A stretch of DNA of 64,000 nt. It comes from Escherichia phage vB_EcoM-pEK20. Below are positions 25,344 through 55,894 of the stretch, piece by piece; the stretch's first letter is position 1, and each line of letters opens with the position of its first letter. Position numbers and translations under genes: made by a program. Under the pieces are notes generated by a model that was not told the DNA's origin, did no database searches, and worked only from the letters and a program-made list of their open reading frames with translations. The DNA lies in sequence record MZ868638.1; one strand, written 5' to 3'.

Positions 25344-25756
25344 TGAGATATAGCTTTCGTTGTTTTATCGCAGCTTTAGTTTTTGCTATTATTCCATTCA
25401 TTTGGAACAGCCAGAATACTTACATGGAAACTAAAGTAATTCCTGTGGAGGTAGTGGAATTAATCTCAGGCCAATCTACAGGAAAATATTCTAAATTAGA
25501 ATTTATTGCAGTCTATAAAGATGAGCAAGGACGAGTTTTTGACAGGCGTGTATCGCCGTCGTTTTATACGCTTCTGAATAAAGGTGATACGATAGCTATA
25601 GAAATTCGTGAGATGGATATAAAACAAACTACTAAAGATAACTTGATTTGGTTCTTTGGTACAGTGTTGTTGGTTTCTATCTGTATCACAGGTTTTATTA
25701 CATGTATTGTATTTGGCATTGCATATTTAATCGATGAAAGGAAAAATAATGTTTAA
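25343..25756 (+). CDS. membrane protein
   Basis: N- and C-terminal hydrophobic segments. Confidence 0.45.
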   Translation: MRYSFRCFIAALVFAIIPFIWNSQNTYMETKVIPVEVVELISGQSTGKYSKLEFIAVYKDEQGRVFDRRVSPSFYTLLNKGDTIAIEIREMDIKQTTKDNLIWFFGTVLLVSICITGFITCIVFGIAYLIDERKNNV

Positions 25757-26012
25757 AGTGTACGGGTATGACTCTACTATTCATAAATGCATTTATTGCG
25801 ATAATGCGAAACGATTGCTGACTGTTAAGAAACAACCATTCGAATTCATTAATGTTATGCCAGAAAAAGGTGTGTTCGATGATGAGAAAATTGCTGAGCT
25901 TCTGGTTAAGCTTGGTCGTGAATCACAAGTTGGATTGACTATGCCTCAAGTGTTTGCTCCTGATGGAACTTCGATCGGTGGCTTTGACCAACTACGAGAA
26001 TATTTTAAATGA
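25749..26012 (+). CDS. nrdC: glutaredoxin/thioredoxin NrdC
   Basis: MFKVYGYD...CIYCDNAKRLL...MPQVFAPDG matches T4 NrdC. Confidence 0.9.
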   Translation: MFKVYGYDSTIHKCIYCDNAKRLLTVKKQPFEFINVMPEKGVFDDEKIAELLVKLGRESQVGLTMPQVFAPDGTSIGGFDQLREYFK

Positions 26013-26365
26013 CATATTCATTAAATCTTAAAGATTTCCAAGATGTATACGAAGTTTGTGCCAATGAACTTGGTCCTGATGCTCCAACTATTATTGAAGT
26101 TTTAAATGTGCTCCCTTCATCATTAGCTTACGAAGCCAAATCATGGGGTTGGAACGACACTGTCGTTCGTGATGACCTTTACGTCCTGATGAACGATATG
26201 ATGGTTAAAAAGGCAGAACCGGTTGCACCAATGGTTACCATTACCGTTGAAGAATATAATCGCCTGCAAGCCATTGAAGAGCTTCTGTGGAACATTGAAT
26301 GTGACCTGCCATCCGGACTAGAATCCTGGATTGATTATGAAGAGCTCAATAAACTCCGGGGTTAA
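26009..26365 (+). CDS. hypothetical protein
   Basis: ATG overlapping nrdC stop. Confidence 0.45.
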   Translation: MTYSLNLKDFQDVYEVCANELGPDAPTIIEVLNVLPSSLAYEAKSWGWNDTVVRDDLYVLMNDMMVKKAEPVAPMVTITVEEYNRLQAIEELLWNIECDLPSGLESWIDYEELNKLRG

Positions 26366-26493
26366 ACCGTGGTATTCGGCTCGATGGGAGACAGTCGAGC
26401 CAGACGTCGAAACAGTTTACAATGACGAAGAAACGTGTTATGATGAACCTTCAATAAATGAATTAATTGATATGGAAATGGGAAGAGATTATT

Positions 26494-26664
26494 ATGCAAG
26501 TTAAATTATTGTACCGTTTATTAAAAAATGGCAAGCATGATTGGTATTTGCTTATTAAAACCGATCCGAATTTTTTCTCTGGACAACCATTTACAGTTCG
26601 TCCTACTAAACGTCAGCTTCGCAAAGCTAAACGTTCTCATCGTAACTTTTATAGAGAATATTGA
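26494..26664 (+). CDS. small basic protein, RPTKRQ-motif family (copy 1)
   Basis: C-terminus VRPTKRQLRKAKRSHRNFY. Confidence 0.4.
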   Translation: MQVKLLYRLLKNGKHDWYLLIKTDPNFFSGQPFTVRPTKRQLRKAKRSHRNFYREY

Positions 26665-26665
26665 T

Positions 26666-27079
26666 ATGAATATTTCTGAAACTCGCGGTAAATGGTTCAA
26701 GATTGTTAAAGAAGACGAAGAACTCCAAGATAAGTTTCCTGAATTAAAGAAAGATACGATCATCAAGGTAATTGGTACTACTACCGAAGATGGTTATGGC
26801 GACCATGGCATTATCGAAGTGATGTTGAACACAGGTGAGAAACTTTGCATCTATGACCGTGATACTTCTCTTTGGTGCTTCTGGGAATCCCATTCAATAG
26901 ATGAACTCGAAGAAATTGACCAAGTAGTTTGTGATGGTGGACTTGGCGAATTCAAAGGTGAACGTATTTCTTATGCTTTAGCTAAATTAGCCGCCCAAGA
27001 AAATAATGACGGTTATGAAGGTAATCTGATGCAAGCCGCAGCGGAATACATTGAATATTTAGAAAGACGTTTAAGTTAA
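26666..27079 (+). CDS. hypothetical acidic protein
   Basis: ATG at M47 of listed ORF 26528. Confidence 0.45.
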   Translation: MNISETRGKWFKIVKEDEELQDKFPELKKDTIIKVIGTTTEDGYGDHGIIEVMLNTGEKLCIYDRDTSLWCFWESHSIDELEEIDQVVCDGGLGEFKGERISYALAKLAAQENNDGYEGNLMQAAAEYIEYLERRLS

Positions 27080-27088
27080 GGGCTTATT

Positions 27089-27268
27089 ATGAAAACTGCA
27101 TTATTTTTTGGCGAAAGAACAAACGGTCAAAAATCTTGGAAATTTGTTATAATTGGTGCTCCAAACAATCCGAACATGAGGACTTCAATCATTTCGGTAA
27201 CACGTCCTACTAAAAGAATGATTCGCCAATACAAACGTTTTCATCGAGACTTTTATAACGTTTACTAA
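27089..27268 (+). CDS. small basic protein, RPTKRQ-motif family (copy 2)
   Basis: 59-aa ORF not in track; C-terminus TRPTKRMIRQYKRFHRDFY. Confidence 0.35.
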   Translation: MKTALFFGERTNGQKSWKFVIIGAPNNPNMRTSIISVTRPTKRMIRQYKRFHRDFYNVY

Positions 27269-27270
27269 AT

Positions 27271-27278
27271 TATAAATA
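27271..27278 (+). promoter_or_regulatory. late promoter core TATAAATA upstream of gene 49
   Basis: exact TATAAATA 30 nt upstream of 49. Confidence 0.5.
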
Positions 27279-27307
27279 CCCTTATCTATTTAAGGTAAGG
27301 GTTTATC

Positions 27308-27781
27308 ATGTTATTATCAGGCGCAAAATATAAAGAAGAAAAACAAAAATTTTATGATGCACAGAACGGTAAGTGTCCTATTTGCCACCGTGAATTAGAC
27401 CCTGATGTTCAAGGTAACCATCTTGACCACGACCACGAATTAAACGGGCCAAAAGCCGGTAGAGTTCGTGGATTACTCTGTAATCTGTGCAACGCAGCAG
27501 AAGGTCAAATGAAGCATAAGTTCAACCGTTCCGGTCTTAAAGGACGTGATGTCGACTACCTCGAATGGCTTGAAGCTCTTCTTGCTTATTTGAAACAAGA
27601 TTATTCTGATAATAATATCCATCCTAATTTTGTTCCAGACAAAACTAAAGAGTTCTCAAGACTAGGTAAAGAGGAAATGATGGCTGAGATGCTTCAAAGA
27701 GGATTTGAATATAATGAATCTGATACCAAAACACAATTAATAGCTTCATTCAAAAAGCAGCTTAGAAAGAGTTTAAAATGA
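27308..27781 (+). CDS. 49: endonuclease VII (Holliday junction resolvase)
   Basis: near-identical to T4 gp49 over whole length (CPICHREL...GLLCNLCNAAEGQ). Confidence 0.95.
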   Translation: MLLSGAKYKEEKQKFYDAQNGKCPICHRELDPDVQGNHLDHDHELNGPKAGRVRGLLCNLCNAAEGQMKHKFNRSGLKGRDVDYLEWLEALLAYLKQDYSDNNIHPNFVPDKTKEFSRLGKEEMMAEMLQRGFEYNESDTKTQLIASFKKQLRKSLK

Positions 27782-29595
27782 AAATTGAAAAAGAAATTGA
27801 AGGATTAATTCATAAAACTAATAAAGATCTTTTGAACGAGAATGCTAATAAAGATTCTCGTGTTTTTCCAACTCAACGGGACCTTATGGCTGGTATTGTG
27901 TCTAAGCACATTGCCAAAAATATGGTCCCGTCTTTTATTATGAAAGCACATGAAAGCGGAATTGTCCATTTCCATGATATTGATTATTCCCCTGCTCTTC
28001 CATTTACTAATTGCTGTTTAGTAGATTTAAAAGGAATGCTTGAAAACGGGTTTAAGCTAGGTAATGCTCAAATTGAAACGCCTAAATCGATTGGTGTTGC
28101 TACTGCAATTATGGCACAAATTACCGCACAGGTTGCTTCACATCAGTACGGCGGAACGACTTTTGCTAATGTAGATAAAGTACTTTCTCCTTATGTTAAA
28201 CGCACCTATGCAAAACATATTGAGGATGCAGAAAAATGGCAAATCGCTGATGCGTTGAATTATGCCCAATCTAAAACAGAAAAAGACGTATACGATGCAT
28301 TTCAAGCTTATGAGTATGAAGTAAATACTCTTTTTAGCTCAAACGGTCAAACGCCTTTTGTAACAATTACATTTGGTACTGGAACTGACTGGACTGAACG
28401 AATTATTCAGAAAGCAATTCTTAAAAACCGCATTAAAGGCCTTGGTCGTGATGGAATAACTCCTATTTTCCCTAAACTTGTTATGTTCATTGAAGAGGGT
28501 GTCAATCTTTATAAAGACGACCCGAACTATGATATTAAGCAGCTTGCTCTAGAGTGTGCAAGCAAAAGAATGTATCCTGATATTATTTCAGCTAAGAACA
28601 ATAAAGCTATCACTGGTTCATCTATTCCTGTTTCTCCAATGGGTTGTCGTAGTTTCTTGAGTGTATGGAAAGATTCGACTGGAAATGAAATTCTTGATGG
28701 ACGTAATAATCTTGGTGTTGTAACACTGAATCTTCCTCGTATTGCGTTAGATTCTTATATTGGAACACAATTCAATGAACAGAAATTTGTTGAGCTATTT
28801 AATGAACGAATGGATCTGTGTTTTGAAGCCTTGATGTGTAGAATTAGTTCTTTAAAGGGTGTTAAAGCAACAGTTGCTCCTATTCTTTACCAAGAAGGTG
28901 CATTTGGGGTTCGTCTTAAACCTGATGATGATATAATTGAGCTATTTAAAAACGGTAGAAGTTCAGTGTCTTTAGGATACATTGGTATTCACGAATTGAA
29001 TATTCTTGTCGGTCGTGATATTGGACAGGAAATTTTGACTAAAATGAATGCTCGTCTTAAGCAGTGGACTGAAAGAACCGGTTTTGCTTTTAGCTTGTAT
29101 TCTACTCCTGCTGAAAACCTGTGCTATCGCTTCTGTAAACTTGATACTGAAAAATATGGAAGTGTAAAAGATGTTACTGATAAAGGCTGGTACACTAATA
29201 GTTTCCATGTTTCAGTAGAAGAAAATATCACTCCGTTTGAAAAGATTTCTCGCGAAGCCCCATATCATTTCATTGCGACTGGCGGACACATTTCTTATGT
29301 TGAACTTCCTGATATGAAAAATAACCTAAAAGGTCTTGAGGCTGTCTGGGATTATGCTGCGCAACATTTAGATTATTTTGGTGTTAATATGCCAGTAGAT
29401 AAATGTTTTACGTGTGGAAGTACCCATGAAATGACTCCTACCGAAAACGGATTTGTTTGTTCTATTTGTGGAGAAACTGATCCTAAAAAGATGAACACAA
29501 TAAGAAGAACTTGTGGTTATCTTGGAAATCCTAACGAACGTGGATTTAATCTCGGCAAAAATAAAGAAATCATGCATAGGGTTAAACACCAATGA
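27778..29595 (+). CDS. nrdD: anaerobic ribonucleoside-triphosphate reductase
   Basis: 605 aa, glycyl-radical motif RTCGYLG and zinc-site cysteines at C-terminus; uninterrupted (no intron). Confidence 0.95.
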   Translation: MKIEKEIEGLIHKTNKDLLNENANKDSRVFPTQRDLMAGIVSKHIAKNMVPSFIMKAHESGIVHFHDIDYSPALPFTNCCLVDLKGMLENGFKLGNAQIETPKSIGVATAIMAQITAQVASHQYGGTTFANVDKVLSPYVKRTYAKHIEDAEKWQIADALNYAQSKTEKDVYDAFQAYEYEVNTLFSSNGQTPFVTITFGTGTDWTERIIQKAILKNRIKGLGRDGITPIFPKLVMFIEEGVNLYKDDPNYDIKQLALECASKRMYPDIISAKNNKAITGSSIPVSPMGCRSFLSVWKDSTGNEILDGRNNLGVVTLNLPRIALDSYIGTQFNEQKFVELFNERMDLCFEALMCRISSLKGVKATVAPILYQEGAFGVRLKPDDDIIELFKNGRSSVSLGYIGIHELNILVGRDIGQEILTKMNARLKQWTERTGFAFSLYSTPAENLCYRFCKLDTEKYGSVKDVTDKGWYTNSFHVSVEENITPFEKISREAPYHFIATGGHISYVELPDMKNNLKGLEAVWDYAAQHLDYFGVNMPVDKCFTCGSTHEMTPTENGFVCSICGETDPKKMNTIRRTCGYLGNPNERGFNLGKNKEIMHRVKHQ

Positions 29596-47992: not shown

Positions 47993-49153
47993 ATGAATAC
48001 TTTTAAAATCGGAACGAATTTTGATTTAGCTCTTCTTGATAAAATCGTAGAGCTCAATAAAACTTATCCTAATAGCTTGATAAACGAAGTATACGGCTCT
48101 ACAAGAGAAATGGCTTTTGTAGCAGCCAGACCTGATTTTAGGCTTCCTGACGTTGACAAAAAGATGTTAGAAGATTACGTTAAACGTTGTAACGAATTAG
48201 GTATTTGCTTTAACTATACACTCAACACGATAAATCCTGGTTCAAAAAGAGAACTAGTTGAGTGGAAGAAGAAAGCTATTCAGGATTATGTTCAGTATCT
48301 TTGGTCAATAGGCGTATGGCGTATTACTATCGCTAACCCTGTTGTTATGGAAATTGTTCGTGAAGTCAATAAAGACATTGAGATTGAAGTTTCAACAATT
48401 CTACATGTCGATGCTGTAACTCAAATCAAATACTTGCATGACCAGTATAATATCAAAAAGGTCTGCTGTGGAATTCATAAGAACCGTTCGGTTTCTTTCC
48501 TGAAGCGTGCAGCAGAGTTTTGCAATAAGAACAATATAATATTTGAAGTTCTTGTAAATGAGTTCTGTTCTAATGCTGGTAAAGGGTATACAACACATTG
48601 TAGCTATCGTGACTCTTGCTATATTTTCCATAGTACTGATGTTACCGCTGATGATGCTAAATCCTTAAATGGATATCCAATGCAACACTGCATTAAAGCT
48701 CGTGATACAGATCCATTTAACTGGTTGAGAACTCGTTTTGTTCGTCCTCAAGATTTGAAACTTTATAATGATATTGGTATCACTCAATTCAAAGTTTCAG
48801 GACGTACAGGTAGCACAGACTACATTTTGAAAGTTCTTGAAGCTTATGCTTCCGAAAAATTTGAAGGTAATTTGTTGGAATTGTGGAAGCCTTTAGAGAC
48901 CATTTTCACTCTTGAAAATGAGACCGAGTTTTCACATACGGTAAATATTGAAACCTCTTTGTTAGATGGCTTTTTAGAAAAAAGGTGGTTCAGACATCCA
49001 GATTTCGATTGTGCTAATGAAATCTGTGGGACGACGTGTACATATTGTGAAAGATATTATAAACGTCAATTATCTAAAAATGGGTTATCAGAAAACTCTA
49101 TATCTATTATTGATATAACTAACTCTGACGACGCTTTGAGGTACCCAGAATGA
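47993..49153 (+). CDS. peptidase-U32-family-like protein (putative Fe-S/radical enzyme), function unknown
   Basis: LGICFNYTLNT, NEFCSNAGKGYTTHC and FKVSGRTGSTDYILKVLEAY resemble U32 family motifs; C-terminal Cys cluster CGTTCTYC. Confidence 0.4.
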   Translation: MNTFKIGTNFDLALLDKIVELNKTYPNSLINEVYGSTREMAFVAARPDFRLPDVDKKMLEDYVKRCNELGICFNYTLNTINPGSKRELVEWKKKAIQDYVQYLWSIGVWRITIANPVVMEIVREVNKDIEIEVSTILHVDAVTQIKYLHDQYNIKKVCCGIHKNRSVSFLKRAAEFCNKNNIIFEVLVNEFCSNAGKGYTTHCSYRDSCYIFHSTDVTADDAKSLNGYPMQHCIKARDTDPFNWLRTRFVRPQDLKLYNDIGITQFKVSGRTGSTDYILKVLEAYASEKFEGNLLELWKPLETIFTLENETEFSHTVNIETSLLDGFLEKRWFRHPDFDCANEICGTTCTYCERYYKRQLSKNGLSENSISIIDITNSDDALRYPE

Positions 49154-55174: not shown

Positions 55175-55492
55175 ATGAAAACCATCGATTGTAAAGCAGA
55201 ATTTAAGATTTTTTATCACGGTTCAAGTAGTTCAGCTAACATCGAAAACATGCTTTGTCCTCCTGAGGAAACAGGAGTTCTGTCTGAAACCGGACGTAAG
55301 AAAAACTTGGATCGTGTATTCTTTACTGAAGATATCGGTTTAGCAAAGATTTATGCAGGACGAGCAGCACGCTCTTATGGAGGTGAACCACGTCTCTATC
55401 GAGTAATTTCTCCGGTAGACGTAGTTCAAATGAATAATACTAAAGGTGCTACAGTTTATCACGCTGAATGGGCATTTTGCGAGGAAATATGA
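55175..55492 (+). CDS. hypothetical protein
   Basis: ATG ORF. Confidence 0.5.
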   Translation: MKTIDCKAEFKIFYHGSSSSANIENMLCPPEETGVLSETGRKKNLDRVFFTEDIGLAKIYAGRAARSYGGEPRLYRVISPVDVVQMNNTKGATVYHAEWAFCEEI

Positions 55493-55680
55493 GCAAATTA
55501 ACTAAAGTTACTTTTATTGGTTGGTTTAAAAGTGGTGAGATGTTCACTAAAGATATCATGTTATCAGGTGACCGTGAAGAAATCGAGTGGGTTGCTGTAC
55601 AACTCGCTGAAGTGAACAGTGCACTTGTTAAAGCATTTGTTAATGACGAGAAAGTTTTTGAAGCTGATTTCAGAGGATAA
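55489..55680 (+). CDS. hypothetical small protein
   Basis: ATG at M8 of listed ORF. Confidence 0.4.
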   Translation: MSKLTKVTFIGWFKSGEMFTKDIMLSGDREEIEWVAVQLAEVNSALVKAFVNDEKVFEADFRG

Positions 55681-55681
55681 T

Positions 55682-55894
55682 ATGTATTCAACTGTGTTTA
55701 AACCATCAACATACGAATTTGCATCAACTACACAATGGAAAGCTCTTATTCTGGAAGGATGGGAACTAATGATGGACTGTGAAGCATCTGAAAAGTTTCC
55801 ACACGGCAAAGTGGACTTCGTTAAATTTGCTGTACGTCCGACTAAACGACAGATTCGTCAAGAAAAACGCAAATTTCGCAAAAGTTTAAAATAA
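55682..55894 (+). CDS. small basic protein, RPTKRQ-motif family (copy 3)
   Basis: C-terminus VRPTKRQIRQEKRKFRKSLK. Confidence 0.4.
   Translation: MYSTVFKPSTYEFASTTQWKALILEGWELMMDCEASEKFPHGKVDFVKFAVRPTKRQIRQEKRKFRKSLK

Follow-up and report, generated by a model that had tools for sequence, protein, structure and literature searches.

The stretch analysed here, 64,000 nucleotides (nt) of one strand from Escherichia phage vB_EcoM-pEK20 (sequence record MZ868638.1; "the window" below), carries three small open reading frames (ORFs), A, B and C, which are probably early genes of one small phage-restricted protein family, DUF7279 or the TifA family. ORF C is, by its sequence, TifA, a phage inhibitor of the toxin ToxN, and ORFs A and B border pin, the gene of an inhibitor of the host Lon protease. 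We lean towards an overall explanation in which A, B and C form one TifA family and A and B act as RNA-anchored anti-defence paralogues. The genes are the following.

26494..26664, plus strand: ORF A, 56 amino acids (aa), isoelectric point (pI) 10.8, a short TifA-like paralogue directly 5' of pin, at the position of RB69ORF089c.
27089..27268, plus strand: ORF B, the counterpart of RB69ORF087c, a short TifA-like paralogue of 59 aa (pI 11.4) that lies between pin and gene 49.
55682..55894, plus strand: ORF C, tifA (gp61.4), 70 aa from its ATG; Pfam DUF7279 E = 3.5e-20; phrog_2375.
26666..27079, plus strand: pin (PinA, inhibitor of the host Lon protease); Pfam PF10465 E = 3.1e-47; phrog_2167; named pin in the RB69 annotation.
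55489..55680, plus strand: dmd (inhibitor of the toxins RnlA and LsoA), directly 5' of tifA; phrog_2102 Dmd E = 5e-33, with the RB69 annotation in agreement.

The family relationship is seen in several comparisons. Against the Pfam DUF7279 profile (PF23945), which has a gathering threshold of 24.5 bits, ORF A scores 54.5 bits (E = 1.1e-14), ORF B 53.8 bits (E = 1.8e-14) and ORF C 72.1 bits, and all three matches extend to the last or next-to-last profile position. BLASTP aligns A with B over the full length (36% identity, E = 3e-11) and, through the C-terminal block, A with C (8e-7) and B with C (5e-5). A profile made from TifA-type sequences only, without the A/B-type rows, retrieves A at E = 6.7e-10 and B at 3.6e-8 among the 1669 six-frame ORFs of the window, the next best being at 0.47. 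With the whole family profile the same ORFs yield exactly three copies (A, B and C), and no further copy was detected elsewhere in the window, in RB69 1-50 kb or in T4 45.5-51.5 kb. PHROGs assigns A (5.8e-27) and B (2e-30) to phrog_3272 and C to phrog_2375, and places the short (A/B) and long (TifA) forms in separate families that cross-match weakly (E = 6e-7 to 2e-3). A sequence-only reading of this stretch had described a dispersed family of three ORFs of 56-70 aa beginning at 26494, 27089 and 55682, two of them flanking the gene upstream of endonuclease VII. All three ORFs are there, the flanked gene is pin by its PF10465 match, Pfam and the two PHROGs (3272/2375) make the three a single family, and the alignment that the reading had called for gives significant A-B, A-C and B-C similarities and the expected C-terminal block. 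The shared block itself, given as VRPTKRQ, was slightly idealised, as it holds for A and C and reads TRPTKRM in B; the motif common to all three near the C-terminus is R-P-T-K-R-x-[IL]-R-x-x-K-R-x-x-R.

The reading had also allowed that the similarity might lie only in low-complexity basic residues, and this is not what we found. The Pro-Thr cap and the spacing of the basic residues (i, i+1, i+4, i+7, i+8, i+11) are fixed across 35 family members, in which the proline is invariant and the threonine and lysine are at least 90% conserved, and the C-terminal block is therefore not merely compositional; the Pfam scores, the BLASTP similarities and the TifA-only profile led us to reject low complexity or chance as the explanation, with the signal between A or B and C still consisting of a Trp strand and the C-terminal block. 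All 17 homologues from a word-index search carry PF23945, and when 1.84 billion representative proteins were searched exhaustively with HMMER, only 28 clusters came back at E <= 1e-3, nearly all of 57-129 aa with the conserved Trp strand and [RK]-P-T-K-[RK]-Q-[ILV]-R-x-x-[KR]-[KR]-x-[FH]-R. No NCBIfam model matched the family profile, and the Pfam and PHROGs entries for DUF7279, phrog_3272 and phrog_2375 assign no function. The family is already known and A and B are new, uncharacterised members of it, not something categorically new. As a side observation, protein P0015, from a 512-nt ENA contig, has a C-terminal half like that of TifA-RB69 (…FAVRPTKRQIRQEKRKFRK) fused in frame to ~58 unrelated residues, and may come from a metagenomic relative in which the 3' end of tifA is rearranged.

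What is known of function in the family comes from ORF C, which is identical over 70 of 70 residues to RB69 gp61.4 and lies directly 3' of dmd, whereas A and B are 29 kb away at pin. [quoted passage not shown] TifA-RB69 is the main subject of Guegler et al. (NAR 2023; PMC10853763), who found that it is purified together with RNA, that in vitro it binds RNA as well as single-stranded DNA (ssDNA) and double-stranded DNA (dsDNA), and that the substitutions P53A T54A or K55A R56A R59A abolish both RNA co-purification and ToxN neutralisation. Their AlphaFold model is L-shaped, with an N-terminal beta-sheet, a ~20-residue loop and a Pro-Thr-capped basic C-terminal helix. The ToxN-TifA complex is a large ribonucleoprotein enriched in 16S rRNA, and trapping of ToxN on abundant RNA is the mechanism proposed (PMC10853763). 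The predicted ToxN interface consists of the ~20-residue loop and the loop with position 41, a position that tunes ToxN inhibition, and with six further TifA homologues from other phages, each a long form (73-98 aa), no tested ToxN or TenpN toxin was neutralised (PMC10853763). Because those long-form homologues were inactive on every toxin tested, specificity in the TifA family lies outside the helix, and it is the N-terminal part that sets the target. The VRPTKRQ tail of the sequence-only reading corresponds to V51 R52 P53 T54 K55 R56 Q57 of TifA-RB69, and the suggestion that the basic tail binds nucleic acid is correct for C, where it was already established for an identical protein (PMC10853763); A and B may be expected to do the same from conservation of the same residues. 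In vivo it is RNA, and not DNA, that matters, and the founding member of the family, TifA, is a known anti-defence protein.

The functional helix residues of TifA (R52 P53 T54 K55 R56 R59) are all kept in A (R36 P37 T38 K39 R40 R43) and in B (R39 P40 T41 K42 R43 R46), and the basic side chains of the helix cluster on one face. B and C were modelled with AlphaFold2 from the 35-sequence family alignment. The B model (predicted local distance difference test score, pLDDT, 90.4) has strands at 2-9, 15-22 and 31-36 and a helix at 42-58, and the C model (pLDDT 77.9), with strand 2-6, a 20-residue loop, strands 27-33 and 43-49 and helix 55-69, agrees with the published description. A and B are predicted to share the strand-strand-strand-helix fold of TifA, B directly from its model and A through its full-length identity to B. 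In Foldseek searches of predicted viral structures the best matches included small uncharacterised proteins of S16, Merlin, CBH8, EcS1 and PM2, and the B and C models have BFVD matches in common (Merlin A0A0K1LNJ9, Myduc A0A5J6T8B6, KP-Rio A0A1D8ES62). Nothing significant was found for the B model in the PDB (best E = 0.73, with the Pur-alpha, dsRBD and PAS matches being noise) and the family profile matched no PDB sequence, so that no solved structure was found by sequence or by fold.

A and B differ from TifA in the parts that are predicted to contact ToxN. The connection between beta1 and beta2 is 5 residues in B and 20 in C, and the beta2-beta3 loops are unrelated (GAPNNPNM in B and KTDPNF in A versus CEASEKFPHG in C), so that the two loops of the predicted interface are present in C, with H41 and a sequence identical to that of RB69, and absent from A and B. 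The N-terminal part has a net charge of -2 in C and of +3/+4 in A/B, which carry +10/+11 over the whole protein. The differences in both loops and in N-terminal charge point to a different target face.

On this basis a mechanism can be proposed for the family. The DUF7279 domain would consist of a beta-sheet of three strands and, after it, an amphipathic basic alpha-helix with a Pro-Thr cap; the helix would anchor the protein on RNA and the N-terminal sheet with its loops would recognise a host protein. In C, the helix sits on RNA and the sheet and loop face on ToxN, and the toxin is held in an inactive ribonucleoprotein on an abundant RNA such as 16S rRNA; such trapping blocks abortive infection by toxIN, as published experiments on the identical RB69 protein show. 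A and B would be shortened paralogues that keep the RNA-anchoring helix and use another N-terminal surface to hold a different host factor. RNA binding by A and B through the corresponding helix is quite likely, because the residues needed for RNA co-purification in TifA are all conserved in them. More tentatively, and with rather more doubt than confidence, we suggest that they could be RNA-tethered inhibitors of a host RNA-targeting defence effector other than the ToxN variants handled by TifA. The neighbourhood is in line with an anti-defence role, as pin blocks Lon, and at the corresponding locus of T6 gp49.2 inhibits OLD (PMC13096335).

A and B are real genes under purifying selection. 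The region of the window around them has 97-99% DNA identity to RB69-like T-even phages (Mosigvirus, Straboviridae), and conservation in related phages, which the sequence-only reading had proposed to check, is extensive: A-type genes are intact in ~145 Mosigvirus phage records at >= 80% identity, and B-type genes were found by tblastn in 359 phage records, including RB32, with JS10, Bp7, VR7 and VR5 at 50-53% identity. Among diverged Mosigvirus alleles the pairwise ratio of nonsynonymous to synonymous substitution rates (dN/dS) ranges over 0.06-0.33 in A and 0.03-0.23 in B, ~0.1 overall, with many synonymous changes. The distribution of the family is patchy and resembles that of accessory arms-race genes. 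Neither A nor B is present at the pin locus of T4, where 49.1 overlaps pin and pin lies 41 nt from gene 49; RB32 has B only, and the Mosigviruses RPN187, NicPhage and mar005P1 have A and pin without B. In these last three pin is 141 aa long versus 137 aa, and lies 35 nt from gene 49. EP02SG (PQ301181.1, a record marked UNVERIFIED) has both A and B, with 98.6% identity over window positions 25700-27800, and in its whole genome no TifA and no DUF7279 copy beyond A and B was detected; RB69-like phages thus vary at the tifA locus. In the RB69 reference (AY303349, ~48375-48536) ORF A is frameshifted by one extra A (AAAAAAA versus AAAAAA, at window 26520-26535) and is annotated only as the 38-aa RB69ORF089c, which may reflect a real pseudogene or a sequencing error.

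A and B are also in-register direct repeats around pin, as is seen from two pairs of identical sequence exactly 604 nt apart.

26645..26653, plus strand: ACTTTTATA, a 9-nt microhomology in the 3' end of ORF A, with an identical copy in ORF B at 27249-27257.
26599 (ORF A) and 27203 (ORF B), plus strand: CGTCCTACTAAA, a 12-nt identity in register with the ACTTTTATA pair.

Recombination between A and B at this microhomology deletes pin. In phage phiE142 (KU255730.1; extracted locus 2501-2715) a 56-aa DUF7279 gene follows A as far as ...AACTTTTATA and then B (ACGTTTACTAA), after which come the late promoter downstream of B and gene 49, and pin is absent. The crossover of this chimera maps inside the shared ACTTTTATA (26645 / 27249). 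The same A::B junction is found as a single BLAST piece, with >= 98.8% identity, in at least 25 phage records, among them ST0, PHB12, PTK, AV115, JM10, CCU7, Shf125875, CEV1, OLB35 and SHSML-52-1. The position of the junction at the 9-nt microhomology therefore indicates that recombination between A and B removed pin in a substantial group of Mosigviruses and preserved a TifA-like gene. Such recombination could in principle also amplify pin, and short-homology recombination of the same kind generates the dmd-tifA amplifications of T4 (PMC9391042). Besides any function of their products, the paralogues thus shape genome content, having cost a sizeable group of phages the Lon-inhibitor gene pin. 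An extra 315 nt in phiC120-type phages was considered as a further family member and rejected, as it is a 98-aa gene at the position of the Y04L-family gene of phiE142.

Other explanations for A and B have to be weighed against RNA-anchored anti-defence paralogues, and the one that we regard as the least improbable, though still improbable, is that they are small RNA-binding proteins or RNA chaperones of a general kind, which support phage gene expression (acting, for example, on the stability of mRNA or on how early transcripts are translated) and have no specific host-defence target. Their place in an early operon would suit this, as would a basic character that, unlike in TifA, extends to the N-terminal part, and TifA in vitro shows little specificity in its binding of several RNA fragments, ssDNA and dsDNA (PMC10853763); yet the patchiness among close relatives, with both genes lacking in T4, B missing in some Mosigviruses and A frameshifted in the RB69 reference, marks them as accessory and not core, and the sole characterised family member is an anti-defence factor. 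We find it distinctly less probable that A and B are additional ToxN inhibitors that extend the dosage of TifA activity, as a hard-wired counterpart of the segmental amplification of tifA in T4 under toxIN. They share the RNA-binding helix with all its functional residues, higher TifA dosage improves escape from plasmid-borne toxIN, and RB69 is naturally less sensitive to toxIN than T2, T4 and T6 (PMC9391042), of which our comparison covers T4, where A and B are absent from the pin locus. However, the greater potency of RB69 is reproduced by plasmid-expressed tifA alone (PMC9391042), of the two loops placed at the predicted ToxN interface A and B lack the 20-residue one and differ in the one with position 41, their N-terminal charge is reversed, and the six full-length homologues that failed on all ToxN/TenpN tested are nearer to TifA in architecture than A and B are (PMC10853763).

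A role as DNA-binding proteins, for example associated with the nucleoid or with replication, would have on its side that the affinity of TifA-RB69 for short ssDNA and dsDNA in vitro is similar to that for RNA (PMC10853763) and that the locus adjoins the genes of endonuclease VII and of nucleotide reductase; no DNA-binding fold or family was detected with the B model or the family profile, and we consider this role very improbable. It is hardly credible that A and B are non-functional, decaying duplicates or recombination scars of tifA that are still open by chance, even with A frameshifted in the RB69 reference, B missing from some relatives and A::B chimeras in existence. The selection data (dN/dS ~0.1, many synonymous changes) contradict it, the frames are intact in hundreds of genomes of several genera, the ribosome-binding sites are conserved and the genes tightly coupled, and the chimera itself keeps an intact in-frame gene of 56 aa.

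Several points weigh against RNA-anchored anti-defence paralogues themselves. In the literature searched we found no experiment on A or B and no paper on DUF7279, and no A/B-type protein is among the homologues tested in PMC10853763, all of which are long forms. The anti-defence role of A and B is argued from paralogy, neighbourhood and patchy distribution only. A profile of the N-terminal part of TifA matched neither A nor B at E <= 10, and it is for this reason that the sequence signal linking them to C is placed in the conserved Trp strand and the Pro-Thr-capped basic block; since the N-terminal parts show no sequence similarity, whole-domain homology to TifA rests on Pfam and our own profiles, the conserved Trp and predicted structure. 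The AlphaFold2 alignment is shallow (35 sequences) and dominated by the helix, and Foldseek connects the B and C models weakly (E = 0.03-0.6, though with probability 0.98-1.0). A highly basic protein of 56-59 aa could bind RNA or DNA non-specifically for an unrelated purpose, and the conserved adjacency of B and pin may be plain synteny.

Going further, DUF7279 might be a modular anti-defence scaffold, with a constant RNA-anchoring helix and a fast-evolving N-terminal 'bait', of which an RB69-like phage would have up to three; A and B would then trap other RNA-targeting effectors on bulk RNA, and the A/B repeats would serve as a microhomology switch that deletes or amplifies pin. We regard this extended picture as rather unlikely. 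Candidate targets of A and B under it would be other type III toxins (TenpN, CptN), other abortive-infection RNases and anticodon nucleases.

The surroundings of A and B have the order nrdC, a 118-aa ORF, a gp49.1 homologue, ORF A, pin, ORF B, gene 49 (endonuclease VII) and nrdD (26-28 kb), and the packing is operon-like: the start of A overlaps the end of the gp49.1 homologue, its stop lies 1 nt before the ATG of pin, and B begins 10 nt past the pin stop. A Shine-Dalgarno-like GGAAGAG lies 6-7 nt 5' of the ATG of ORF A, and ORF B also has a Shine-Dalgarno-like sequence. Upstream is a candidate promoter.

26415..26444, plus strand: T4-early-promoter-like site (GTTTACA ... TG-TATGAT), ~50 nt 5' of ORF A, within the 49.1 homologue.

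This site, with an extended -10 TG, scores 10/12 in a consensus scan and is a consensus match only, and the record of phage SA79RD annotates the same site as a T4-early-type promoter. Beyond ORF B, a T4 late-promoter box, TATAAATA, is found at 27271-27278, followed directly by a 10-bp hairpin at 27278-27302 (ACCCUUAUCU...AAGGUAAGGG; -12.9 kcal/mol, z = -3.0) that encloses the Shine-Dalgarno sequence of gene 49. We take the box and hairpin together (27271-27302) to resemble the arrangement at T4 gene 49, in which early read-through transcripts presumably mask the ribosome-binding site and late transcripts start inside the hairpin. The 118-aa ORF (26009-26365), after nrdC, sits at the position of T4 49.3/49.2 and was considered as a homologue of 49.2 (anti-OLD) or 49.3; this was rejected, as it is homologous to neither. 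The C-terminal half of the ORF gives a match to phrog_3402 ('antitoxin from a toxin-antitoxin system', E = 1e-32), the ORF has a weak match to T7 gp5.9-like RecBCD-inhibitor profiles (Pfam E = 0.015), and RB69 has two short ORFs in the matching stretch instead, ORF092c (54 aa) and ORF091c (58 aa). At ~55.5 kb the order is RB69ORF040c-like, dmd, ORF C, imm.1 and imm. The RB69ORF040c-like ORF (105 aa, 55175-55492; phrog_2110, no assigned function) ends 4 nt inside the annotated dmd start, and because of this overlap its translation is probably coupled to that of dmd-tifA; in one record at least, HX01, an 'ADP-ribosyl transferase' is named among the features of this region. In T4, dmd and tifA are a two-gene locus under an early promoter located upstream of dmd (PMC9391042).

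These results overturn nothing in current understanding. TifA is one of a small number of phage counter-defence proteins whose mechanism has been worked out, and that mechanism, RNA-dependent toxin trapping, is an unusual one. If A and B keep the RNA anchor and change the target face, they would be two ready candidates for new anti-defence specificities and a clean natural test of the idea of a constant anchor with a variable bait. If they act as RNA-tethered inhibitors of a defence effector, the pin neighbourhood would be a second anti-toxin or anti-defence cluster beside the dmd-tifA-adfA island. In practical terms, the label 'hypothetical protein' that hundreds of T-even genomes carry at the A and B positions can be changed to TifA-like (DUF7279).

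The nearest known system is TifA (T4/RB69 gp61.4), with which A and B share Pfam DUF7279, the predicted strand-strand-strand-helix topology, the Pro-Thr cap and all the RNA-binding basic residues. They differ from it in being 56-59 aa long, against 70 aa (RB69) and 85 aa (T4), in having no 20-residue beta1-beta2 loop, another beta2-beta3 loop and a basic instead of acidic N-terminal part, and in lying at the pin locus and not next to dmd. From its position ORF A might have been guessed to be gp49.1, but this was rejected: A is not homologous to T4 gp49.1, as gp49.1 of T4 and RB69 is acidic and homologous to the neighbouring window ORF 26337-26504 (phrog_2382), and for the same reason the negative result of T6 Gp49.1 against OLD (PMC13096335) says nothing about ORF A. 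Like Dmd (T4 gp61.5) and AdfA (gp61.2), small early toxin-neutralising proteins encoded with tifA in the proposed 'anti-TA island' (TA, toxin-antitoxin) of T4, A and B lie among small early accessory genes, in a cluster that contains PinA and that in T6 has the anti-OLD gp49.2 at the corresponding locus (PMC13096335). There is no relationship of sequence or fold between A or B and Dmd or AdfA, and Dmd is reported to inhibit RnlA directly (PMC9391042), whereas TifA needs RNA as a third partner. In this respect TifA has been compared by Guegler et al. (2023; PMC10853763) to the HIV-1 Vif-APOBEC3-RNA 'molecular glue', in which a host antiviral enzyme is held and inactivated by a viral antagonist that depends on RNA to do so; the likeness is a mechanistic analogy with no homology, and serves as a working model for TifA and, by extension, possibly for A and B.

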